Origin: an archaeon
Lineage (GTDB): Archaea; Iainarchaeota; Iainarchaeia; Iainarchaeales; 1-14-0-10-31-34
Assembly (NCBI GenBank): GCA_024277355.1
Contig: JAJRVL010000005.1
Coordinates: forward strand, 60,001 to 92,000
DNA: 32,000 nucleotides
Direction: 5' to 3'
Below are positions 1,484-26,341 of the stretch, piece by piece. The notes beneath the pieces were generated by a model. It was not told the origin of the DNA, made no database searches, and saw only the letters and a list, made by a program, of their open reading frames with translations. Both the position numbers and the translations under genes were made by a program. The stretch's first letter is position 1; every line of letters starts with the position of its first letter.

Positions 1484-4051
1484 CTATTGCTTTTTCACAA
1501 GCATTACTACTATTATAATTATTATTGCAAGCAATCCAATTGTTACTGCTGCATTTTGTCCTAATGAAATTAACGCTGTTGCTGCTCCTATTTCTTTTGT
1601 TTCTGATTTAGTGTTAATTTCTTTGCCATTATCAAGAACAAATGAAACAGGAATTTCTTTTTCTGTTCCATTTGTTTTTAATTTAAAGAATACTTCTTTT
1701 GTTTCTCCTGCTTTAACTTCCACTTTAGTGTTTCCTTCTAGTGTCCATTCTTCTGGAATTTCAACAATCAAATTTCCATTGATTCCTTCTGCTGTTTCAT
1801 TTTCAATTGTTATTTTTAATTCTGTTTCATTAAATACTTTTTTTGTTGTTTCAGCGGAAATTTTTATTTCTTTTTCTTCAACAATTAATTCTATTGCTTT
1901 TTCAATTCTTTTTCCTGCTGATTCAACTACAAGAACTGCATTATATTTTCCTGAATTTTCTGCTTTAATTTCAATGCTTATTGTTCTATTTGAATTAGCC
2001 GGAATTACTATGCTTTTTTCATTTGCTTTTAATAAACCTAAATCTTCCATAAAAACTCTGAATTCTTTTGATGAAGAAGAATTATTAATTAAAGTAAAAG
2101 AAATGCTGTCATCTAAAGAAACTATTTTTTTTGAAGGGAAATCAGTTACTTCAAAAGCCTGTTCTGAAGAAATTATTTTTGTGGTCTTTGACTGAACATT
2201 ACATTCTGTTAATGAAACATCATAAACCAGATAATTTTCTTTCCCTTCTAATAATTCAACTTCAATTGTTTTTGTAAAAGAATAATTTTTTGGAATGTTA
2301 ATTGAATAAGGGCTTACACTTAAATTTGTTCCGTTAATTTTTATTGTTCCTGTTTTGCTTAAAGGATTGTTTATTTTTAATGTAATTTTTTCTTTTCCTA
2401 AAACACTTTTAATGCTAGGGACTTCCAAAGAAAAATCTGAACAATTGTCTGTTGTTTCCTGTTCTTCTTCATCTTCATTTCCTGTGTTATTGTTATAGTA
2501 ATCTGAATTATTTACTTTTAAGTTAAAACTTTTTCTTGTATCTGAAAAAGAACAAGTTTCTCCATTTTCAAATTTTCCTTTTACTTTAAAATAAGCAGTT
2601 GAAGTTTTATCTGAACTTACATTATCTGTTTTTACACTAAAAGAAACATTTTTTTCAGAGTTGTTATTTATATAAGAAGGAAAATCAATGTTTCTGAATT
2701 CTGCAAAAGAAGTAAATTCATCAAAGTCTATTCCTTCAATGTAAAATCTTTCATTTGAATTGTTTTCGACTGAAAAAGAAGCTGAAAAATAATCGTTTTC
2801 ATTTAAATTTAAATTTTTTGTATTTAAGTAAATGTCATTGCATTCTCCTTCATTAAAATAAGAATTTTCTACTGTAATGTTTACTGTTTCTTCTCTTATT
2901 TCTGAATAAGAACAGTAATTTCCGCCGGAATAATGCCCTGAAATTCTAATGTAAATTTTTCCTGTTTCATTAAATGAAACTGAATTACTGTTTATTTTGT
3001 AGTCAAATTCTCTTGAAGAGTTTTTTGGAATTAAGCTTGGATTATAACTTTCTGTTGCATTAAAATAAGAACTATTATCTAATACATCAAAATCATCAAT
3101 ATAAAAAGCTGAATCAGAATAATTTCTCACAGTAAAAGAAAAAGTTTCTGAGTCATTTTCCTGTATTCTTTCATTTGAAGCACTAATACTTATGTTTCCG
3201 CATGAATTATCAAATGAGTTATCTGAAACTCTTACAATAAAATCTTTTTTTATGTCTGAATAAGAACAGGTTTTTCCTGAAGCAAATTCTCCTTTAATTT
3301 TTAAAGTTGCAGTTCCGGTTCTATCTGAATTAACTTCAGAACTATTAACTTTCAGTCTTACTTGTCCTAAACCATCTGAAGCAATAGATGAATCATTTGA
3401 ATTAGTAAAAACTCCAAAAAATGATTCATATTCAACTGGTGAAACTCCTTTAATGTAAAATCTTTCATTTGAATTATTTTTTATATTAAAAGTAACAAAT
3501 TCTGTTTCATTTTCATTCATTGCAACTGAATTAGAAAAAATTTCTATATCGTCGCAATAAGAATCAAAACCTGAATTAACTAAATCTACAAAAGCAATAT
3601 TAGAGCCTGAATTATAATAATCAGTTGAATTTTCTGCATAAACAATTACTTTATATTTTGAATAATAATCATCAATAAAAAATGCGTCATACCAGTAAAC
3701 TGTCTTGTAATTAAGATAATTTAATGAAATATTTCTTGTATTAGTTGTCTTTAAATAAACCCAGCCGTTATTGTAGCCGTAAATTTCAGCATAAGCTTGA
3801 ATCCAGTCGTTGTAATAATAGTCGCCGTAATAATTATAATAATCCAAAAAAAGTTCTGCTCTTATGTCAACTGCATCGTTGTCGTTTACATTAATTGAAT
3901 TACTCCAATAAGAATCATAATCGCTTCTTAATTCAACTGAAGAAACTTCAACAAAAAAAGGATGCGAAGTATCAGTAAACACAGCTGAATTCACATTAGA
4001 TAAAATAAAAATTAAAAGCATTATTATAGACAAAAACTTTCTCATAAACAA
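1484..4051 (-). CDS. Large secreted, C-terminally membrane-anchored surface protein (S-layer/CARDB- or NEW3-like Ig-fold repeats), probably heavily N-glycosylated
   Basis: There is an N-terminal signal peptide (MFMRKFLSIIMLLIFILSNVNSA) and a C-terminal TM anchor followed by KKQ (VTIGLLAIIIIIVVMLVKKQ). The N-domain is Tyr/Asn-rich (YYNYYGDYYYNDW). Three repeats of about 118-120 aa each carry a Cys pair. The C-terminal modules fit the pattern ...IPEEWTLEGNTKVEVKAGETKEVFFKLK..., typical of archaeal cell-surface Ig-like domains. I hand-counted about 30 N-X-S/T sequons. Confidence 0.7.
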   Translation of the reverse strand: MFMRKFLSIIMLLIFILSNVNSAVFTDTSHPFFVEVSSVELRSDYDSYWSNSINVNDNDAVDIRAELFLDYYNYYGDYYYNDWIQAYAEIYGYNNGWVYLKTTNTRNISLNYLNYKTVYWYDAFFIDDYYSKYKVIVYAENSTDYYNSGSNIAFVDLVNSGFDSYCDDIEIFSNSVAMNENETEFVTFNIKNNSNERFYIKGVSPVEYESFFGVFTNSNDSSIASDGLGQVRLKVNSSEVNSDRTGTATLKIKGEFASGKTCSYSDIKKDFIVRVSDNSFDNSCGNISISASNERIQENDSETFSFTVRNYSDSAFYIDDFDVLDNSSYFNATESYNPSLIPKNSSREFDYKINSNSVSFNETGKIYIRISGHYSGGNYCSYSEIREETVNITVENSYFNEGECNDIYLNTKNLNLNENDYFSASFSVENNSNERFYIEGIDFDEFTSFAEFRNIDFPSYINNNSEKNVSFSVKTDNVSSDKTSTAYFKVKGKFENGETCSFSDTRKSFNLKVNNSDYYNNNTGNEDEEEQETTDNCSDFSLEVPSIKSVLGKEKITLKINNPLSKTGTIKINGTNLSVSPYSINIPKNYSFTKTIEVELLEGKENYLVYDVSLTECNVQSKTTKIISSEQAFEVTDFPSKKIVSLDDSISFTLINNSSSSKEFRVFMEDLGLLKANEKSIVIPANSNRTISIEIKAENSGKYNAVLVVESAGKRIEKAIELIVEEKEIKISAETTKKVFNETELKITIENETAEGINGNLIVEIPEEWTLEGNTKVEVKAGETKEVFFKLKTNGTEKEIPVSFVLDNGKEINTKSETKEIGAATALISLGQNAAVTIGLLAIIIIIVVMLVKKQ
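2444..3556 (-). repeat. Three tandem intragenic domain repeats (about 118, 120 and 133 aa) inside the surface protein
   Basis: The repeats start at C166, C284 and C404. The partner Cys residues are C262, C380 and C500, exactly 96 residues later in each copy. Shared motifs are NERFYI(K/E)G and C-S-(Y/F)-S-(D/E). A 24-nt block, aatgtaaaatctttcatttgaatt, is identical at 2738-2761 and 3452-3475. Those are 714 nt apart, which equals two repeat units. Confidence 0.8.
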
Positions 4052-6070: not shown

Positions 6071-6379
6071 TTATTCCTTTAATTCAATTTCAACGTGAAC
6101 TTGTTCTGGGATTTCTACTCTCATTATTCTTCTTAAAGTTCTTTCGTCTGCTTCAATGTCTAATAATCTTTTATGAATTCTCATTTCCCATTTATCAATT
6201 GAACTTGTTCCGCCGCCAGGCATTCCTTTTCTTGTAGGAACAGTTAATTTTCTTGTAGGTAAAGGAATACTTCCTGAATGCTTTACTCCTGTTCTGTTTG
6301 CGACTTCTTTAATTTTTTCACAGATATCTTCAAGTAATTTGAAGTCAGGGCTTGTTAATTTAATTCTTGCTTTTCTCAT
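6071..6379 (-). CDS. rps10: 30S ribosomal protein uS10
   Basis: MRKARIKLTSPDFKLLEDICEKIKEVANRTGVKHSGSIPLPTRKLTVPTRKGMPGGGTSSIDKWEMRIHKRLLDIEADERTLRRIM is a classic archaeal uS10. I chose the start at the fourth ORF codon (MRKARI); the ORF track extends to 6388. Confidence 0.93.
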   Translation of the reverse strand: MRKARIKLTSPDFKLLEDICEKIKEVANRTGVKHSGSIPLPTRKLTVPTRKGMPGGGTSSIDKWEMRIHKRLLDIEADERTLRRIMRVEIPEQVHVEIELKE

Positions 6380-6455
6380 ATATATCAATATTCCTTTGAT
6401 TTAATCTTTTCTAAAATAGCTTAAAAAAGATAAAAGAAATGAAAGCTTAAAGCCT

Positions 6456-7721
<1,266 letters not shown>

Positions 7722-7924: not shown

Positions 7925-8662
7925 ATGCCAAAAGGAAAAAACAGGCTGCCTAAAAGCAGGTTAGTGGAAGTTCTTTCAGAGAAAAAAAAAGTGTTGGAAA
8001 TAAAAAGACCTAAATCAATGGAAAAAAGCAGGATTATTTCTCCTAAACTGGCTTTAAAGACTGCAGTAACTTTTTTAAATGATGCGACAAAAAGAAATTC
8101 TAATAATTCAACTAAATTTTTTCATAAATTAAAATCTTCAAAAAGTACAAGTTCTTTTGCTATTTTTGGTTTTGGTGGAAGAAATATTAACAGAGGAGCT
8201 TTTGTTCAAAGAATTGAATCCATATTAAAAGGAGATGATTTAACTGAAGTTAAAAGACAGTTTGAAAGACAGTTTAGTAAATTAACAAGATATTCTTTGG
8301 CTGATTTAGTTGAATTAAGCGGAAGTCCTTTGTTAGGTTCAAGAGGAACCGCTAAAGTTGAAGTTACAAAAAAAAATGGCGTTAATAATGTTGTTTTGCT
8401 TGGTGCGGCTGTTCCAAGTTTTAAAAGAAATTCTACAGTAGTTGAAAGAAATAAGCGTTTTCTTTATGAAAATTTAATTAATAATGTTAGAAGGGTTTAT
8501 GGAAAAAAAACTAATTTTACAATTAGAATTCCAAAAGAAGATTCAAGAATTGCAAGTTATTTAGAAAGCAAATTTGTTATTGAAAAAACTGAATCAATGC
8601 CTAATATTATAAGTTTAACAATAGACTTAAGTAAAACATATAAAAGAAAAAAAGGAAAATAA
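7925..8662 (+). CDS. Hypothetical basic protein (245 aa), no family recognised
   Basis: This is a clean ATG-to-TAA ORF and the only plus-strand gene within the first 20 kb. It has its own TATA-like box and a T9 tract after the stop. The composition is Lys/Arg/Ser/Asn-rich, with no Cys and a single His. I recognise no catalytic motif. Confidence 0.55.
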   Translation: MPKGKNRLPKSRLVEVLSEKKKVLEIKRPKSMEKSRIISPKLALKTAVTFLNDATKRNSNNSTKFFHKLKSSKSTSSFAIFGFGGRNINRGAFVQRIESILKGDDLTEVKRQFERQFSKLTRYSLADLVELSGSPLLGSRGTAKVEVTKKNGVNNVVLLGAAVPSFKRNSTVVERNKRFLYENLINNVRRVYGKKTNFTIRIPKEDSRIASYLESKFVIEKTESMPNIISLTIDLSKTYKRKKGK

Positions 8663-18379: not shown

Positions 18380-19846
18380 TCACAATTTTTTCAGTTTTAC
18401 GCCCATTTCATCCAGCATTTTTTCTACTGGTTCTTCAGGGGTGTCAACTGTAACCTCTGCTAATATACTTAAATTTTTAACTAAACCGCATTGAGGTCCG
18501 TCTGGAGTTTCAATTGGGTCTAATCTTCCCCAATGAGTTCCATGAACATCTCTTGCTTCATATAATTCTCTGTTTTTATCTAATGGGCTTTTGACTTTTC
18601 TTAAGTCAGTTAATGGAGCTAAATAATTAACTCTTTCCATGAATTTTGAAACACCTGTTGCTCTGCCAATCCAGTTTCCTGTTGACATTGCAAACCTGAT
18701 TCTTTCGCTTATTGCTCCAGGTCTTACAACAGTTGAAATATTTAATTTTCTTCTTCTTGTTACTGTTCTGTCAATCTGGAATTTTAAGTCTTTAATAAAA
18801 TATTTAAATGAATATCTAAACAAGTGTTCCATTAATTTTCCGCTTAATTCTAATCTTTTGTTTTTGTAATGGTCTTTGTCGTCTTCTTTTCTTATCCCAT
18901 AACTTAATTCAATTGATTTTGTTGCCATCATAGCTAAATAATATGCTTTAGCTAATCTGTCTTCTGCTCTTTGACCAATATGCGGAAGCAAAAAAGCATC
19001 AATTACTTCTTTTGCTCTTCTTAATCTGTATTCGATTACTTGTCCTGGTGCTACATATTTTCCTATTTTATCTAATGCATCATTTTCTTTTTTGATGTCA
19101 TCTAATTCTAAATTTAATAAAATGTCATTTGTTATTTCTTTTTCATTAGGGAAAGCGCCAATAATATCTTTGTCGTTTACTAATCCAAGTGCTTTAAGTA
19201 ATACAAATAATCTTAATTTTCTTGGAGAAGAAGGAAAAGTTACATATAATACTCCATCAATACTTCTTGTAATTCTTACTCTTCCTTTAAATGCGCCTTT
19301 GGTTGAAATTACTTCTGCAATCCATTTATCTAATTGAGTTGAAACTAAAACTCTGTCTGAAGACAATACTTCTTGTGTCATTAATGCTTTTTCTGAACCA
19401 TTGATAATAAAGTAAGCTCCAAAGTCCATTGGGTCTTCTCCTGATTCAGTTAATTCTTCTTCATTTAATCCTTCAAGCCAGCATCTGTTTGATTTAAGCA
19501 TTACTGGAAGTTCTCCAATATACGCTCTTTTTTCGTCTTGTTCTACATCTCTTCTAAGTAATTTCATTGTTAAAAATAAGGGTCCTGAATAAGTTCTGTT
19601 TCTTGTTCTTGCTTCCATTGGAAAAAAATTAGCTCTAGGACTTCCATCTGCTTCAATTATTTTTGGTTTTAATACTTCAATGTTTTCTAATTCAATTTTT
19701 ACTTCTTCAATTTTAGGAACAATAGTTTTGTTTTCTTCTACTATTTCGTCTAATTTAACATCAACAAACTGATTAAATGAATCAATTTCCTGTTGGGCAA
19801 TGTTTTTTGTATTAAAATAAGATTTAATTAAAGGCCAGCCATTCAT
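18380..19846 (-). CDS. rpoB2: DNA-directed RNA polymerase subunit B'' (N-terminal half of a split RpoB)
   Basis: The 488-aa ORF contains ...FIINGSEKALMTQE... and ...HGTHWGRLDPIETPDGPQCGLVKNL.... It lies directly upstream of B' with a 4-nt gap. Confidence 0.95.
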   Translation of the reverse strand: MNGWPLIKSYFNTKNIAQQEIDSFNQFVDVKLDEIVEENKTIVPKIEEVKIELENIEVLKPKIIEADGSPRANFFPMEARTRNRTYSGPLFLTMKLLRRDVEQDEKRAYIGELPVMLKSNRCWLEGLNEEELTESGEDPMDFGAYFIINGSEKALMTQEVLSSDRVLVSTQLDKWIAEVISTKGAFKGRVRITRSIDGVLYVTFPSSPRKLRLFVLLKALGLVNDKDIIGAFPNEKEITNDILLNLELDDIKKENDALDKIGKYVAPGQVIEYRLRRAKEVIDAFLLPHIGQRAEDRLAKAYYLAMMATKSIELSYGIRKEDDKDHYKNKRLELSGKLMEHLFRYSFKYFIKDLKFQIDRTVTRRRKLNISTVVRPGAISERIRFAMSTGNWIGRATGVSKFMERVNYLAPLTDLRKVKSPLDKNRELYEARDVHGTHWGRLDPIETPDGPQCGLVKNLSILAEVTVDTPEEPVEKMLDEMGVKLKKL

Positions 19847-20305: not shown

Positions 20306-20962
20306 ATGAATACTTTTCCTGAAAAAGATTTTTATCTTTTGCTTATTATTGCAAAAAAATCGGAATTAAATAATTCAATTAAAGCTTCAACTTCAGAACT
20401 TGCATTAGACTTGAATATTTCTCAACAGTCTGTTTCAAGAAAACTTTCTTTTTTGGCTGAAAAAGAATTAATTGAAAGAAAAGTTTTAGCTTCAGGAAAT
20501 ATTATTTCTTTAACTGAAAAAGGAAAAAATTTTTTACTTAAAAGAAAGAATGAATTAGACAAAATTTTTTCTTCAAAAAAAAACAATAAGCTTTCAGGCA
20601 AAGTAAAATCAGGATTAGGAGAAGGAAAATATTACATTAATCTTCCAGGATATCAAAATCAATTCAAAAAAAAATTAGGAAACAGGGTTTTTCCCGGAAC
20701 ATTAAATATTAAAATAAATGAATTTGAATTAAATGATTTTCTTTCAGAGAAAAAAAAGATTTCAATTAAAGGTTTTTCTGATAAACAAAGAAGTTTTGGT
20801 CCGGCTTTTGTTTTCAAAGTAAAATTAAACGGCAGAATTGATGCTGCTGTAATAATTCCTGAAAGAACTAATCATCCTGAAAATATTCTTGAATTAATTT
20901 CTTCTTTTAATTTAAGGAAAAAATTAAAATTAAAAGACAATGCTTTAGTTTTTGTTTCTTAG
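20306..20962 (+). CDS. rbkR: RbkR-like fusion: N-terminal winged-HTH DNA-binding domain plus C-terminal archaeal CTP-dependent riboflavin kinase
   Basis: The C-terminal half, GKVKSGLGEGKYYINLPGYQNQFKKKLGNRVFPGTLNIKI...IIPERTNHPENILELIS, closely parallels the Methanocaldococcus MJ0056-type riboflavin kinase (GxVxSGLGEGxYF...PYxGTLNLKL...T.H...IEII). The N-terminal roughly 90 aa, STSELALDLNISQQSVSRKLSFLAEKELIERK, is a typical wHTH. Confidence 0.8.
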   Translation: MNTFPEKDFYLLLIIAKKSELNNSIKASTSELALDLNISQQSVSRKLSFLAEKELIERKVLASGNIISLTEKGKNFLLKRKNELDKIFSSKKNNKLSGKVKSGLGEGKYYINLPGYQNQFKKKLGNRVFPGTLNIKINEFELNDFLSEKKKISIKGFSDKQRSFGPAFVFKVKLNGRIDAAVIIPERTNHPENILELISSFNLRKKLKLKDNALVFVS

Positions 20963-21453
20963 TTTTTTTTGAATGACTTTTTCATTTTGTTCAAAAAAGA
21001 TTCTTTTTTCTTTTTTTCATTTTTTCTTCCTGTAAACTGAATTCTTCCTAATTCTTTTTCTGTTTCTTCAACTAATTTATTTACTTTTTCTGTTAATTTA
21101 TCTTTTTTTAGTTCTGCATCTTCATCTGTTTTAAGCAATCCAATCATTTTTTCAATTGCTTTTTCTTGTTTTGTTTTGAATTCGTTTTTTTCTTGTTTTT
21201 GATCAAACTTTTTTGAAAAAGTTTGTTGGCCAATTGCTTTTTCTTGTTTTGTTTTGAATTCGTTTTTTTCTTGTTTTATTTCAGGTTCTTTATTTTCTGT
21301 TTTTTGCTCCTGTATTTCTTTGTCTTGTTTAACTTTTAATTTGTTTTCTTGTTCTGTTTTTTCTGTTTTTGTTTCTTCTTTTTGAGTTTTCTTTCCTTTA
21401 ATTAAATCTATCATTTCATTTATTTCTTCTTCTTGTTTTTTTTCTTCACTCAT
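20959..21453 (-). CDS. Hypothetical highly charged Lys/Glu/Gln-rich protein with an internal 26-aa duplication
   Basis: This 164-aa ATG-started ORF lies 11 nt downstream of the lipoprotein-like gene. It looks like a low-complexity coiled coil (EKNEFKTKQEKAI occurs twice). Its stop codon overlaps the convergent rbkR stop. Confidence 0.55.
   Translation of the reverse strand: MSEEKKQEEEINEMIDLIKGKKTQKEETKTEKTEQENKLKVKQDKEIQEQKTENKEPEIKQEKNEFKTKQEKAIGQQTFSKKFDQKQEKNEFKTKQEKAIEKMIGLLKTDEDAELKKDKLTEKVNKLVEETEKELGRIQFTGRKNEKKKKESFLNKMKKSFKKN
21153..21277 (-). repeat. Perfect 47-bp direct repeat (2 copies, 78-bp period) inside the K/E-rich gene
   Basis: The sequence caattgctttttcttgttttgttttgaattcgtttttttcttgtttt occurs identically at 21153-21199 and 21231-21277. 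It encodes KQEKNEFKTKQEKAI in both copies. Confidence 0.9.
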
Positions 21454-21464
21454 TTTTTTCCCTT

Positions 21465-22394
21465 TTATTCAATTTTTAAGTAATTTTTTAATTCCATTTT
21501 TTTATTGAAAACAACATGGTATTTTCTTATTTTAATCATTACTTCTGCTTCATATCCTAACGGAGTTTTTTCAAAATTAAGTATTTGGATTTCTGTTGTT
21601 GCTAAACCATTAGTTAACTCTTTTTTCATTCTTTGTTTTATATCTTTTTCCAAACGTGGAAATAATTCTTCAGGATTTCTTTTTCTCCAGACAACAAATA
21701 TGACTCCTGTTGCAACAAGCAGAATAAATCCTGCTGCAACAAGCAGGAAAGGAAAATCTGCTGGTTTTTCTTTTCTGAATTCTATTCGAATATAATTTGC
21801 ATCAATGTTTTTTGTATCATAAAACAGTATAAACCCGTCTTTAATTGAATATCTTTCAGGATTAATTTCAACAATTTCTCCTCTGACTTTAATCCTTAAA
21901 TTTTCTTTGCTTATTTCAGGAGAAAAATAATCTTTTATTTCCGGTTCAATTATCAAAATAAACTGCTCTTTGTTTACGTCAATTAATGCAAACCCGTCTT
22001 TTATTTTGCTTAATTCTTTTATTATTTCTCTTGAATTGTCAAAACTTAATTTTAGTTTTCCATAATATTCATCTTTTTCCATTGTGCATTGAAATGAATT
22101 TTTTACTTCTTTTAAAAAAATTAATTCTGCTTTTGCAGTGTCTCTTGTGTCTTTGTCTAAGCTGTTAATGTTTGCTTCTAATGATGCTTCAGTTGAAGGA
22201 AAAAGTTTCTTTAATTCTTTTTTGCAGTCTTTAATTTCTTTTCCTTTTTCTGTTAGTTTTCCTTCATAAGTTAATTCAGTTGAAATTATTTCTTCTTTTA
22301 TTTCAATAGTAGTCGTTTTTTCTGCTGACTCAAAATAACTAATGCATCCGCTGAATAAAAGCAGTAAAATTAATACAGGGATTATTTTTTTCAT
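21465..22394 (-). CDS. Hypothetical lipoprotein-like membrane protein: lipobox signal, extracytoplasmic domain, one TM helix, and a cytoplasmic tail of about 70 aa
   Basis: The N-terminus, MKKIIPVLILLLLFSGCISY, has a lipobox-like LFSGC. A TM helix, FPFLLVAAGFILLVATGVIFVVW, is followed by RKRNPEE. I recognise no family. Confidence 0.6.
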   Translation of the reverse strand: MKKIIPVLILLLLFSGCISYFESAEKTTTIEIKEEIISTELTYEGKLTEKGKEIKDCKKELKKLFPSTEASLEANINSLDKDTRDTAKAELIFLKEVKNSFQCTMEKDEYYGKLKLSFDNSREIIKELSKIKDGFALIDVNKEQFILIIEPEIKDYFSPEISKENLRIKVRGEIVEINPERYSIKDGFILFYDTKNIDANYIRIEFRKEKPADFPFLLVAAGFILLVATGVIFVVWRKRNPEELFPRLEKDIKQRMKKELTNGLATTEIQILNFEKTPLGYEAEVMIKIRKYHVVFNKKMELKNYLKIE

Positions 22395-22430
22395 TTAATA
22401 GAATTAGTTCTGTCAAATTAATAAACTTTA

Positions 22431-22607
22431 TTATAAGCGCATAAACGCAATTACGCCAAAACTGATGAAAATATAAGATAAAACCATTCCCTGTGTGCTG
22501 AAAATTAATTCATTAAAAAAAGAAATTTCAAGCAGGTTTAATGCTATTAAAACCATATAAAATAAAATCCAGAAAAAAAGCCCCTGAACCATTGAATTTT
22601 TTATCAT
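22431..22607 (-). CDS. Small membrane protein (58 aa, about 2 TM), paralogue of 22970..23140; not in the ORF track
   Basis: My translation is MIKNSMVQGLFFWILFYMVLIALNLLEISFFNELIFSTQGMVLSYIFISFGVIAFMRL. Its ATG (22605-22607) directly abuts the TAA of the upstream 119-aa gene. It shares MIK..., LNLLEI and a C-terminal F-x-RL with the 56-aa sORF. Confidence 0.5.
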   Translation of the reverse strand: MIKNSMVQGLFFWILFYMVLIALNLLEISFFNELIFSTQGMVLSYIFISFGVIAFMRL

Positions 22608-22967
22608 TTAAAACACGCCCATGCTGTATAAAAATATCATTAAGAAAAAATAAATTGTTAAAACAAAAGGAATTTTTCCCTGTAATTGAGGAATGTTTTC
22701 AGTAAAAGTCAATAAAATTACTTCAATTATATAATACACAAACAAAAATCCGCCAACTAAAATAACTATTCCTGCTGTTTCAAAAAATTCTACTGTGGAA
22801 AAAATCATAATTAATATAATTAAAAAGAACCTTAATGAAAATTTTTTGTTGTAAACAAAAGTAATCATCAATATTGCAAACACCCAGAAAATGTTATTCA
22901 TAGCTAACTCTACAAACCACTGCAAGTCTAAACTTGCTAATTTTGGAATCCATTCAACTGACAGCAT
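22608..22967 (-). CDS. Small polytopic membrane protein (119 aa, about 4 TM), paralogue of 23145..23510
   Basis: It shares an invariant 17-aa block, SLDLQWFVELAMNNIFW, with the 121-aa paralogue, plus ITFVY, LVGG, LTF and IP motifs. By eye the two are roughly 40% identical. Confidence 0.6.
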   Translation of the reverse strand: MLSVEWIPKLASLDLQWFVELAMNNIFWVFAILMITFVYNKKFSLRFFLIILIMIFSTVEFFETAGIVILVGGFLFVYYIIEVILLTFTENIPQLQGKIPFVLTIYFFLMIFLYSMGVF

Positions 22968-22969
22968 AA

Positions 22970-23140
22970 TTACAACCTTGCAAACATTACATTAATTATA
23001 AAAAATAAAACGCCTAACCCCATCATTTCTGCTGAATAAAGTGAATCTGCAAAAATCCTTATTTCTAAAAGATTAAGGATAAACAAGACACTGAAAAAAA
23101 CAAACATTATTTTTATTCCGTCTAATACTGATTTAATCAT
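22970..23140 (-). CDS. Small membrane protein (56 aa, about 2 TM), paralogue of 22431..22607; not in the ORF track
   Basis: My translation is MIKSVLDGIKIMFVFFSVLFILNLLEIRIFADSLYSAEMMGLGVLFFIINVMFARL. Its ATG at 23138-23140 is 4 nt after the TAA of the 121-aa gene. Its TAA at 22970-22972 is 2 nt before the ATG of the 119-aa gene. Confidence 0.5.
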   Translation of the reverse strand: MIKSVLDGIKIMFVFFSVLFILNLLEIRIFADSLYSAEMMGLGVLFFIINVMFARL

Positions 23141-23144
23141 TTTT

Positions 23145-23510
23145 TTACACCAAAAACAAATTATATAAAATTAATATTGTAAAAAACTGAATCAGCATGA
23201 CTATTGGAAGCCTGTTTTTAAGTGAAGGGATTGCTTCAGCAAAAGTCAACACAATAAGTCTTGCTGTATAATTAATGAAAAGCAGTCCTCCAACAAGATA
23301 AACTAATCCAAGATTTCCAATAAAAGGAATACTAATCCAAAACCAAAAAATAACTACAAAAAAAGTTTTCCAGTTCCATTTTAATTCGTGATAAACAAAA
23401 GTAATCAAAATAAACAAAAATAACCAGAAAATATTGTTCATAGCTAACTCTACAAACCACTGTAAATCCAGTGAAAGCAGTCTGACAAAAAATTCAATTG
23501 CTAAAGACAT
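23145..23510 (-). CDS. Small polytopic membrane protein (121 aa, about 4 TM), first gene of the duplicated cassette
   Basis: The ORF starts with ATG and begins MSLAIEFFVRLLSLDLQWFVELAMNNIFWLFLFILITFVY.... It is hydrophobic throughout. A TATA-like TTTATACATAAATA lies in the 85-nt gap to uppP. Confidence 0.6.
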   Translation of the reverse strand: MSLAIEFFVRLLSLDLQWFVELAMNNIFWLFLFILITFVYHELKWNWKTFFVVIFWFWISIPFIGNLGLVYLVGGLLFINYTARLIVLTFAEAIPSLKNRLPIVMLIQFFTILILYNLFLV

Positions 23511-23595
23511 TTAACTAACCCAAAACCCTCTATTTATGTATAAATTGGGCAAAGAAAAGCTTAAATACTCTTTTTTTAACTGGACTAAGTGAATT

Positions 23596-24345
23596 TCAAA
23601 TAAATGCGATTATCAAATAAAATATTCCTAATCCAAAACAAAAATAACTAAAATTAATTTTTTTTGCTATTTCAAGCAGATATTTTATGCTTAAATAACC
23701 ACTTACAAAAGCCACTAATACAGCAATCAATAAATTCCATTCAAATGCAATTCCCTCTTTTAAGCCAAACAACACTTCAGCTAAAAAAACTGAAGGAACT
23801 GAAAGCAAAAAACTTAACTTAAATGCTTTTTGCGGAGTAAAACCTTTAAATAACAAAACTGAAGTTGTTATTCCGCTTCTGCTTATTCCTGGAAGAACAG
23901 AAAACCCTTGTCCCAATCCAAGCAAAAATGCATTTTGTTTGGTTTCTTCTGTTTTTTTTTCTTTTTTGTTTTTCCATTGCAGTATTCCTGTTCCAATTAA
24001 CATTAATCCAATTAAAACTGAAAGATAAAATGAACTAACTGAAATTTCTTTCAAAAACAAATACATTGGAATTCCGGTTATTGCAGTTGATAATACTGCA
24101 ATTAAAATAAACTGCATTAAATTCCTGTTTTTTAATTCAATTATTTCTCTGAAATCTTTTCTGAAATAAATTAAAGCAGAAAGCATTGTTCCTGCATGAA
24201 GTAAAACTGAATAACTAAAAGCTGTTTCTGAGTCAATTCCAAAAACTTTTATTGCAGTAATTATTGTTTGTCCCTGCGAACTGATTGGAAGCCATTCAGT
24301 TATTCCCTGCATTAAACCTAAAACTATTGCCTGAATTAAATCCAT
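23596..24345 (-). CDS. uppP: Undecaprenyl-diphosphate phosphatase (UppP/BacA family)
   Basis: The 249-aa polytopic protein has the N-terminal GLMQGITEWLPISSQGQ motif (compare E-(F/W)-LPISSSGH). It also has the second conserved motif, PGISRSGITTS. Confidence 0.85.
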   Translation of the reverse strand: MDLIQAIVLGLMQGITEWLPISSQGQTIITAIKVFGIDSETAFSYSVLLHAGTMLSALIYFRKDFREIIELKNRNLMQFILIAVLSTAITGIPMYLFLKEISVSSFYLSVLIGLMLIGTGILQWKNKKEKKTEETKQNAFLLGLGQGFSVLPGISRSGITTSVLLFKGFTPQKAFKLSFLLSVPSVFLAEVLFGLKEGIAFEWNLLIAVLVAFVSGYLSIKYLLEIAKKINFSYFCFGLGIFYLIIAFI

Positions 24346-24350
24346 TTACT

Positions 24351-24614
24351 TCACTGCTTTTTGTACCATTTTTCATATTGCTTATGATTTCCTGCAAACA
24401 TTATTATTCTTGTTTTTTCTTTTTCTTCAAAGCATATTCTGTATTGCCCTGATTCTAAAACAAAAAAAGGTAAACCATGTTTTAAGTGCCTTGCTTTTTC
24501 AATTGTCTTTAACTGTATTATTTTTTTCCATAGTCTTTCTTTTTCCTGTTTGTCAATTTTTCTAAAAAACTTATCCCATTCTTCAGCAAAACTTATTTCA
24601 AACAAGAAAATCAA
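24351..24614 (-). CDS. Type II toxin, RelE/ParE superfamily
   Basis: The 87-aa ORF fits the toxin pattern: ...FRKIDKQEKERLWKKI..LK.......LKHGLPFFVLESGQYRICFEEKEKTRIIMFAGNHKQYEKWY. That is a small basic protein with the G-x-YRI-x-(F/Y)...I...I.....H...Y layout. It has a TTG start overlapping the antitoxin TGA (TTGA). Confidence 0.65.
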   Translation of the reverse strand: MIFLFEISFAEEWDKFFRKIDKQEKERLWKKIIQLKTIEKARHLKHGLPFFVLESGQYRICFEEKEKTRIIMFAGNHKQYEKWYKKQ

Positions 24615-24874
24615 AACCCGTATTTTTTCTTTATTTGTTTTTCAGTTAAAACTTTTCTTTTTCCTTTTTTTATTTCTTCACTGATTTTCTTCATTTTTCT
24701 TAAAGCTAATTGGTCTTCAATTTCTTTAACATTTTTGAAAACACCATAATCTTTTCCTAATTCAAGTATTCCTGCTCTTATTACTTCGCTTTTGGTTTTG
24801 AATATTCCTGTTTCAACTAATTTATCAAGAATTATTTCTTGTGCGCCTTCAAACCTAACTAAAGTTTCTCCCAT
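24611..24874 (-). CDS. Ribbon-helix-helix (CopG-like) antitoxin
   Basis: MGETLVRFEGAQEIILDKLVETGIFKTKSEVIRAGILELGK has the RHH layout: a beta strand, helix A, then the (S/T)-K-SE-x-IR helix B. The ATG at 24872-24874 is preceded by AGGTGA, 4 nt upstream. It overlaps the toxin by 4 nt. Confidence 0.65.
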   Translation of the reverse strand: MGETLVRFEGAQEIILDKLVETGIFKTKSEVIRAGILELGKDYGVFKNVKEIEDQLALRKMKKISEEIKKGKRKVLTEKQIKKKYGF

Positions 24875-24913
24875 AAAATCACCTATCAATTTGTTATCAA
24901 AAAGATATATAAA

Positions 24914-26341
24914 TTAATTGCTTTGTTTTAATTCTTTTGGAATCCATAAATCTGTTTTGTAAATTATTATTGTTATTACTGCACCAATTACGGCAGAAAA
25001 AAGTAATGAATACCATATTCCTTTTAGTCCATAAATTTCTTTTAAGAAAAAAGATAAAATAACAATTAAAATCCAGTATCCTGCTGTCATTAACATTGAA
25101 AGAAAAGTATTTCCTGCTCCTTGAAAACCTGAAGAAATAGTCATTAAAATTCATCTGAAAGGATAAGAAAAAGCAGCAATTGACAAATATACTAATCCAA
25201 TTGAAATCACTTCTTTATCTGCAGAAAATAATTTAAAAAACGGTTCAGGAAACAAAACAAATATTACTGCAACAATTCCCATTAAAAAAGCTGAAATTGC
25301 AGTGGAATAAAAAATTGTTTTTTTTGCTCTTTCAAGTTTTTTTGCGCCAATATTCTGTCCAACCATTGCAATTGTAGCACTAATTAATCCAATTACCGGC
25401 AGAATTGCAATTGAATCCAATCTTGTTCCAATTCCATAAGCTGCAATTGATAATACTCCAAAAACTCCTACAAAACTCATTATAACAGTTAAACCCAAAG
25501 AAATAGTTAAATGCCCAATAGAAGCAGGAGCCCCCAAAAAAATTATTTTTTTCATTATTCTTAAATCAAAAGAGAAATCTTTTGGATTAATTTTAATTAA
25601 ACCTCTTCCTTTTAAAATATAAAAAATATTTAGTCCTGCACCAACACTTCTGGATAAAACAGTTGCTAATGCAGCCCCAAAAATCCCTAAAGCAGGAAAA
25701 CCAAACAATCCAAAAATCAGTATTGGATCTAAAATAATATTTAACATAACACTTATTGCCATATTAATCATTGGGGTTTTTGAATCTCCTTCAGCCTGCA
25801 TTATTCCTTGTGAAATAAATCCAATAAACAAAAAAATAAATCCAATAAAAATTGTGTTAGAATAAAGCAAAGTTAATTCAAGTATTTCAGGAGTTGCCCC
25901 CATAAAAACAAAAATTGGTTTTCCAAAAATAATTCCTAAAACAGCAATAATTATTCCAATAACTCCAGACAGCATTAAAGAATGCTCTGCAATATTATTA
26001 GCTTTAGAATAATTTTTTGCCCCAACTGCCTGCGCAACTAAAGTAGTTGAACCAACACTTAAACCTGAAGCAAAAGCAATGAAAATAAATACAACAGGAA
26101 AAGTTATTGCAACAGCAGCTAAAGCTTCAGTTCCAAGCATCCCGATAAAAATTGTGTCAATTACATTAAAGGCTGTCTGCAAAAGCATGCCAAGCATTAT
26201 TGGCAAAGCTAAAAAAATTAATGTTTTAAAAATGCTTCCTTCAGTTAAATTATTTTTTTTCTTAATAAAAATCAACTCTAAAATAAAAAGTGAAAATATT
26301 ATGTATAATTTAGGCTTGCCTAAGTACTTGCTGAAGAACAA
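24914..26341 (-). pseudogene. MATE-family efflux transporter interrupted by a single in-frame TGA (25151-25153), with no ATG start
   Basis: The 396-aa ORF (ALPIMLGMLLQTAFNVIDTIFIGMLGTEALAAV...) and the 76-aa ORF (MTISSGFQGAGNTFLSMLM...) are in the same frame. They are separated only by TGA-ATT-TTA. Together they would make a protein of about 453-475 aa, a normal MATE length. The only upstream start candidates are TTG at 26341 or 26275. Confidence 0.6.

Follow-up and report, generated by a model that had tools for sequence, protein, structure and literature searches.

Which function might call for two copies of a large and a small membrane protein, encoded in strict alternation and partly missing from public gene calls? 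This question is raised by a 32,000-nucleotide stretch of DNA from an archaeon of the phylum Iainarchaeota (GenBank assembly GCA_024277355.1, contig JAJRVL010000005.1, positions 60,001 to 92,000 of the forward strand), hereafter designated as the window, in which four consecutive minus-strand genes (22431..23510) encode two large (L1 and L2) and two small (S1 and S2) hydrophobic proteins. Comparison with related loci revealed that L and S occur as a pair and that this pair was repeatedly duplicated as a whole. With slightly less than even confidence, the four genes are regarded here as two paralogous copies of a self-contained heteromeric Iainarchaeota module, with four plus two transmembrane (TM) helices, having a transporter- or channel-like role.

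The L-S pair and its duplication

The cassette, delimited by open reading frame (ORF) scanning, starts with L1 (23145..23510, minus strand), a large subunit of 121 amino acids (aa) matching the family profile at E=1.9e-37. S1 (22970..23140), predicted to form a two-TM hairpin of 56 aa, begins 4 nt past the L1 stop codon and is followed by L2 (22608..22967, 119 aa) and S2 (22431..22607, 58 aa, with the pattern MIKxS..FMRL), all on the same strand. The L1/S1, S1/L2 and L2/S2 spacers are 4, 2 and 0 nt; at the last junction the S2 ATG abuts the L2 TAA, which suggests translational coupling of S2. This is exactly the arrangement reported in a preliminary description of the window made from the sequence alone, and its estimate of about four TM helices for the large proteins and about two for the small ones was about right, judging from the helices of an AlphaFold model for L and from two hydrophobic helices in S. 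The paralogy proposed there was also recovered, with 46% identity over 116 aa between L1 and L2 (E=8e-34) and 40% over 47 aa between S1 and S2 (E=5e-7). L1, whose orthologues share 52-79% identity, is a derived paralogue ("L1-type", P62 and R84). The "L2-type" (E62 and E84) is the one present in two relatives having a single pair (L004 and L013; three-digit handles designate related loci), and L2 itself is identical to a public protein of an NCBI contig (P0015, exact look-up).

S1 and S2 had been described as small ORFs (sORFs) missed by annotation. An exact look-up in the public gene calls of the window genome retrieved L2, the UppP protein encoded upstream and a 309-aa protein encoded downstream, while S1, S2 and L1 as delimited here were absent; in four related assemblies (L003, L005, L008 and L009), gene callers also skipped the S genes, yet these are intact there. 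Loci recovered from public assemblies showed both S-type ORFs to be intact and kept in position in every close relative, with intact S1 orthologues after every L1-type gene and intact S2 orthologues (41-53% identity) in all relatives; disruption of the sORFs in relatives, which the preliminary description regarded as decisive against them, was thus not encountered in the close relatives. Divergence between orthologues is saturated at synonymous sites (median dS 1.1-1.7; about 1.3 for S1), and the ratio of non-synonymous to synonymous divergence (dN/dS) is 0.25 for L1, 0.33 for S1, 0.26 for L2 and 0.23 for S2. Identities place S as the fastest-diverging product (41-54%), ahead of L (52-73%) and UppP (74-81%), with its architecture kept, namely two TM helices and an F-[ST]-x-x-G loop motif. 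Since they are intact in all close relatives despite a dS above 1, with a dN/dS of about 0.23-0.33, S1 and S2 are, on these comparative grounds, real genes.

The association of L with S was assessed for 34 L genes at 19 distinct loci, nine belonging to the window clade (45-79% identity to L1) and ten being more distant (22-36%). Word-indexed searching returned no S2 homologue, and S homologues were read directly from the loci. An intact ORF of 49-73 aa, strongly hydrophobic and with two helices, comes after all L genes but one (33/34) and starts -4 to +9 nt relative to the L stop, with a single exception at +40 nt in L017. The recurrence of this adjacency in related genomes, which the preliminary description proposed as a check, holds down to 22-30% L identity while all other neighbours change, and no neighbour other than S was conserved across clades at the loci examined. 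Apart from a copy of S bearing a stop codon in L015, the 19 loci contained no L-only or S-only array. In L015, the S gene (6341..6524) is well conserved except that a TAA interrupts its frame at 6387, which may reflect pseudogenisation or faulty assembly of this co-assembled metagenome-assembled genome.

Arrays comprise one to three units. Single pairs occur in L004, L013, L015 and L019, as well as in L023, where the contig is truncated; the commonest type is the double pair, found in the window, L001, L006-L009, L011, L014, L016, L017, L020, L024 and L025; and L018 has three. A neighbour-joining tree of L, which is not a robust phylogeny, displays an old split in the distant lineages, between an "A" type that invariably opens the array and a "B" type that invariably closes it, and a separate L1/L2 split in the window clade; the third unit of L018 is a further A-type copy, and the single pairs are L2-type in L004 and L013 and B-type in L019. 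S types match L types, and L and S were therefore copied together at each duplication. As read from this tree, the pattern shows at least two separate unit duplications. L013 has its single pair between the same flanks as in the window (uppP and a 308-aa gene), so either the duplication in the window or a loss of one pair in L013 occurred in place. The earlier proposal that a large and a small gene form one evolutionary unit, duplicated as such, is thereby borne out. Conserved adjacency and co-duplication strongly support a functional L+S pair at the level of gene content, and the "obligate heteromer" of the preliminary description may reasonably be drawn from this pairing. An origin of S from a hairpin of L was considered and rejected (hhalign 0.5%), S being unrelated to L. 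In L018, two putative non-hydrophobic sORFs (2782..2958 and 3522..3707; 58 and 61 aa) occupy the interval from S to the following L gene, with a 4-nt overlap at the S stop.

The L family, its topology and conserved residues

While a word-indexed search for L returned 16 clusters, an exhaustive profile search covering 1.84 billion representatives revealed a family of 140 representatives (50% identity) at E<=1e-3. Of these, 69 reach E<=1e-10, and almost the whole family has a length of 117-125 aa and matches end to end. Family-level scans, charge and residue counts and the AlphaFold alignment were based on 129 aligned members. All organism-named members are labelled Candidatus Diapherotrites, Iainarchaeum, "Micrarchaeota" or unclassified archaeon; Iainarchaeum is placed in the phylum Iainarchaeota, part of the DPANN kingdom Nanobdellati. 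With Pfam, the four window proteins had no match at E<=1 and the 129 L members had none at E<=0.1, and the latter, scanned with Pfam and NCBIfam, produced scattered single weak matches and no consistent family. NCBIfam, PADLOC and PHROG models gave no match for L1, S1, L2 or S2, nor did PDB sequence searches with the L and S profiles, in which the best S match (gamma-sarcoglycan, E=0.78) is noise. Foldseek comparison of the L model with the PDB and BFVD returned no match, no relatives were detected among 2.9 million viral contigs, and a literature search of limited extent found no description of an L/S family. The preliminary description had recognised neither protein, and Pfam, NCBIfam and the PDB indeed hold no described family for L or S; a confident match of the large proteins to a characterised family, by which that description could have been overturned, was found in none of the 129 members. 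As far as can be told from sequence, L is an unannotated family restricted to Iainarchaeota and without known relatives.

The AlphaFold model of L, based on the 129-sequence alignment, has a predicted local distance difference test score (pLDDT) of 95.7 and a predicted template modelling score (pTM) of 0.70. Its helices (3-12, 16-25, 27-40, 47-66, 74-93 and 95-120) can be read as a short N-terminal surface helix followed by four TM helices, the first of which (TM1) has a kink at the near-invariant Asn26. Over the 129 members, lysine and arginine (K+R) cluster in loop 1-2 (mean 1.7) and loop 3-4 (mean 1.9), the N-terminus having a mean of 0.12 K+R and 1.8 acidic residues. A bias calculated as the K+R count of loops 1-2 and 3-4 minus that of the N-terminus and loop 2-3 is positive in 129/129 members (mean +3.4; +2 in both L1 and L2). 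In S, the termini are basic and the loop is acidic. Because of this charge distribution under the positive-inside rule, L is predicted to adopt an N-out/C-out topology, in one fixed orientation for all members including L1 and L2, and S an N-in/C-in topology in which the acidic loop faces outwards. This explains the absence of L-S fusions, as the C-terminus of L and the N-terminus of S would be separated by the membrane.

The conserved polar positions of L are E6, D15, N26, K44, D/E62, G68, Y81, R/K84, E92 and N117; S has a conserved N23. An acidic residue at 62 and a basic one at 84 occur together in 78/129 L members. In the window clade, this pair is divided between the paralogues, with P/Y/N62 and R84 in the L1-type and E62 and E84 in the L2-type. 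Charge complementation between R84 of L1 and E62/E84 of L2 was considered as the signal of an obligatory heterodimer and rejected, as the single-pair loci L004 and L013 have E62/E84 only. The [quoted passage not shown] of the preliminary description corresponds to E21 and did not hold up: this position is acidic in just 43/129 members (E in 20, D in 23), and the invariant residue of TM1 is Asn26.

Proposed function and alternatives

A transport or channel role is our best guess for the L/S module, reached by inference. L and S would be produced from the same transcript, with S coupled to the L stop. L would expose an acidic N-terminal tail outside the cell and cross the membrane four times, with basic cytoplasmic loops 1-2 and 3-4 and an external C-terminus, and S would form a hairpin whose two ends are cytoplasmic and whose outer loop is acidic. 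Together they would pack into a six-TM heteromeric protomer; L1S1 and L2S2 would assemble into a hetero-oligomer on the scale of 12 TM helices in this organism, single-pair relatives having a homo-oligomeric equivalent, and a small polar or cationic solute would pass through the complex, acting as transporter or channel. Such a solute or cation pathway appears most likely because polar or charged residues (N26, D/E62, Y81, R/K84, E92 and N117 of L; N23 of S) are conserved within helices or at helix ends and the outer face is uniformly acidic. The L-S contact, the stoichiometry and the transport function are all what we infer from these features.

Known heteromeric transporters follow the same logic. 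In CbiM/CbiN and in the MnhF/MnhG subunits of Mrp, a small subunit with two or three TM helices is translationally coupled to a larger membrane subunit and required by the heteromeric transporter; these systems have no sequence relationship with L/S, which has no linked ATPase or other core subunit, and the Mrp subunit F model gave an isolated weak match (E=0.0034) in 1/129 L members. Fluc/CrcB fluoride channels resemble L in their size (about 120 aa), four TM helices, dimeric state and frequent tandem duplication. However, PF02537 matched neither the window proteins nor the 129 members, no PDB fold match was found, and Fluc dimers are antiparallel and require no two-TM partner, whereas the L paralogues share one orientation and are paired with S.

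Several observations weigh against this transporter or channel proposal. No transporter, channel or other family is detectably related to L/S by sequence or fold, so the case for transport is one of residue conservation. Conserved intramembrane asparagines are classic determinants of helix packing, and these and the charged residues could equally serve packing in a complex without transport activity. The single-pair L2-type relatives lack a basic residue at 84, with the consequence that a simple charge complementation between L1 and L2 fails. One of the 34 L genes, that of L015, is not followed by an intact S. The hhalign alignment of close with distant S proteins is in register (P=63%, E=7e-5), but hmmsearch values are marginal (E=0.002-0.7), and the homology of the two groups is likely rather than proven. 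Finally, a pseudo-fusion of L2 and S2 joined by X residues, modelled as a single sequence without alignment, was too poor for interpretation (pLDDT 64.7, pTM 0.39).

Among the alternatives, L and S may form a scaffold or assembly complex without transport activity, for instance for envelope or surface proteins; this is unlikely, though seriously to be weighed. A candidate client is the 309-aa protein encoded directly downstream of S2 (21465..22394, minus strand), which has a lipobox-like LLLFSGC motif, a C-terminal TM helix and a cytoplasmic tail of about 70 aa, and which is itself followed by a K/E-rich protein of 164 aa (20959..21453, minus strand); neither has a Pfam match. Throughout the window clade, two same-strand genes come after the cassette, encoding a protein of about 310 aa, in which a lipobox-like LLFSGC signal lies at the N-terminus and a TM helix at the C-terminus, and a K/E-rich protein of about 165-230 aa. 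The packing role of conserved intramembrane asparagines would suit a scaffold, as would the lack of any transporter signature in the searches reported above. Yet it is only in the close clade that both genes are kept behind the cassette; they are missing near it in all distant loci and in L004, and as constant partners of the module they were rejected. A conserved TATA-like box, TTTATTAA (22418..22425), also separates S2 from the 309-aa gene, about 27 nt before the ATG of the latter, which suggests a separate, leaderless transcript for this gene. Moreover, conserved D/E62, R/K84 and E92 within helices would be unusual for a pure scaffold.

It is improbable that L and S are merely co-transcribed, acting independently or as separate homo-oligomers, with their adjacency inherited as an operon. 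The pseudo-fusion, which is the sole model of the complex, gives no support for contact, S diverges much faster than L, and distant S proteins are barely recognisable by sequence. However, the adjacency outlasts all other neighbours, the pairing is reproduced in each of three or more duplication events with the close start/stop spacing kept, and neither gene forms arrays of its own, the interrupted S of L015 aside.

Very improbable is a small multidrug resistance (SMR)-like or ArnE/ArnF-like flippase for polyprenyl-phosphate-linked substrates, working with UppP in lipid-carrier recycling, a comparison drawn as an analogy in the preliminary description. SMR pairs (the EmrE homodimer, the EbrAB and YdgEF/MdtIJ heterodimers, and ArnE/ArnF, the undecaprenyl-phosphate-aminoarabinose flippase) have small four-TM subunits of about 110-125 aa, as in L, and, like the cassette, are encoded by adjacent paralogous genes whose products are thought to be hetero-oligomeric, with intramembrane charged residues. 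A glycosyltransferase and a MatE/Wzx-like gene also lie within 8 kb in the window. Nevertheless, hidden Markov models (HMMs) for SMR (PF00893, Multi_Drug_Res), EamA and GtrA (PF04138) matched none of the 129 L members, hhalign of the L family profile with EmrE gave a probability of 6.7%, and the Foldseek search returned nothing from the PDB, which includes SMR structures. The TM1 glutamate of SMR proteins (E14 in EmrE) is essential and conserved, whereas L has no conserved TM1 glutamate; SMR pairs have a dual or opposite topology, in contrast to the single N-out/C-out orientation of L1 and L2; and L has an extra N-terminal helix and an unrelated two-TM partner instead of a second four-TM paralogue. 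The analogy was accordingly abandoned. GtrA polyprenyl-phosphate-sugar translocases, also of about 120 aa with four TM helices and sometimes near lipid-carrier genes, differ from L in the absence of an HMM match, in the lipid-carrier linkage, which is not conserved for L, and in having no counterpart of the L-S pairing.

The genomic link with lipid-carrier recycling has a similar outcome. As initially noted, the cassette lies directly downstream of uppP (23596..24345, minus strand), from which L1 is separated by an 85-nt spacer; the UppP/BacA product is full-length (PF02673, E=1e-51 over residues 6-241) and matches NCBIfam UppP models at up to E=1.9e-42, with scores under the equivalog cut-offs. 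As a conserved tie, this linkage fails: uppP adjoins the cassette at 7/19 loci (the window, L006-L009, L011 and L013), all from one close clade whose synteny with the window covers more than 10 kb, including VIT1/POR/MatE at one end and the RNA-polymerase operon at the other. In L001, uppP lies about 5 kb from the cassette, with seven genes in between, and no uppP was found within 4-6 kb in L004 or in the ten distant loci. The cassette further has a conserved upstream block of 33 nt, CACTTAGTCCAGTTAAAAAAAGAGTATTTAAGC (23559..23591, minus strand), made up of a short inverted repeat (in relatives, CACT..AGTG), an A-tract and TATTTAAG, which is TATA-like; it is kept before the first L gene in eight close-clade genomes (the window, L001, L006-L009, L011 and L013) and may represent an operator and distal promoter. 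A proximal TATA-like box, TTTATACATAA (23534..23544, minus strand), is centred about 30 nt before the L1 ATG and is kept in the window, L001, L004, L006, L011 and L013. Given the archaeal TATA-to-start spacing of about 26 nt, the leader of the L1 transcript would be very short or absent. Both the block (CACTTAGTYCAGTGAAAAAATGAGTATTTAAGC) and the proximal box stay with the cassette in L001, where the upstream gene is not uppP. A separate promoter is therefore indicated, and the cassette probably has its own promoter region, independent of uppP.

The upstream block loosely recalls, presumably as a candidate likeness only, operators of the TrmB type. Regulators of the TrmB family (243-248 aa) are encoded divergently and directly beside the single L-S pair in L004 (5168..5899, minus strand) and L019 (3156..3902, minus strand), two lineages unrelated to each other; a third lies about 4 kb upstream in L001 (1255..2001, minus strand), and the three are 30-35% identical to one another. 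TrmB may have regulated the module ancestrally. The 32-kb window has no TrmB gene, and TrmB was rejected as a constant neighbour, being adjacent in L004 and L019 only.

A toxin/immunity, bacteriocin-like or holin-like pair, in which S would damage membranes and L neutralise it, or the reverse, with conflict driving the growth of arrays, is barely credible. Variation in copy number from one to three, the rapid divergence of S, the location of several distant loci amid toxin-antitoxin genes (PIN/VapB, HEPN/NTase and HicA) and a small two-gene pair between uppP and MatE in the window would be in keeping with it. It is opposed by the lack of PADLOC or PHROG matches and of relatives on viral contigs, a stable position beside the RNA-polymerase operon across the clade, purifying selection on all four gene types, the absence of a leader or cleavage motif in S and the fixed order of types in arrays. 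Last, the view that the small ORFs are chance ORFs in AT-rich DNA, the large genes alone being real, could draw on a genome of about 29% G+C, a length below 60 aa and their absence from the public gene calls of the contig, but it is already refuted by their intactness in every relative at a dS above 1 with low dN/dS, the paralogy of S1 and S2, and the maintained two-TM architecture and loop motif.

Other features of the window and significance of the module

Besides the cassette, the window carries a split rpoB and rpoA, genes for L30e, a NusA-like KH protein, S12, S7, aEF-2, aEF-1alpha, RtcB and archease, at a G+C content of about 29%. Its rpoB' (18380..19846) has no intein, while that of GCA_018829335.1 (L001, 9667..12363) has one (PF14890) and encodes more than 990 aa. 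A MatE-family gene (24914..26341, minus strand) contains an in-frame TGA at 25151..25153, beyond which homologous sequence continues; orthologues in L007 and L008 have a glycine at this site (GGA to TGA). Recoding of TGA as glycine was rejected, as TGA ends 12/34 window genes, and this codon reflects a nonsense mutation, a pseudogene or a sequencing error. Between uppP and MatE, two overlapping ORFs of 87 and 92 aa (24351..24889, minus strand; 4-nt overlap) have no significant Pfam match; in L007 and L008 the same slot is occupied by a PIN_2 and RHH_12 toxin-antitoxin pair, suggesting a variable insertion site for elements of this kind. Two further ORFs lack Pfam matches, one of 855 aa between the L3 and RtcB genes (1484..4051, minus strand) and a basic one of 245 aa adjoining aEF-2 (7925..8662, plus strand).

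DPANN archaea have small genomes with a large share of uncharacterised genes, and their membrane is the interface with hosts and environment. It is possible, if somewhat doubtful, that L/S would be the founding case of a phylum-restricted split small transporter or channel, built from one to three diverged protomers of four plus two TM helices, with a fold absent from solved structures and serving an Iainarchaeota-specific membrane function, such as the uptake of an ion or metabolite that these organisms, with their reduced genomes, cannot make. For annotation, the pair adds a two-gene membrane protein family of about 140 sequence clusters within one phylum, with a confident model of L and no known relatives, and the tempting transfer of an "SMR-like flippase working with UppP" is removed as unsupported. 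The case also illustrates how often functional sORFs below 60 aa drop out of archaeal gene calls. Lineage-specific hypothetical membrane proteins are common; strict pairing, repeated duplication of the whole unit and missed sORFs make L/S a clean and testable example, and its two proteins of about 120 and 57 aa a tractable experimental target.

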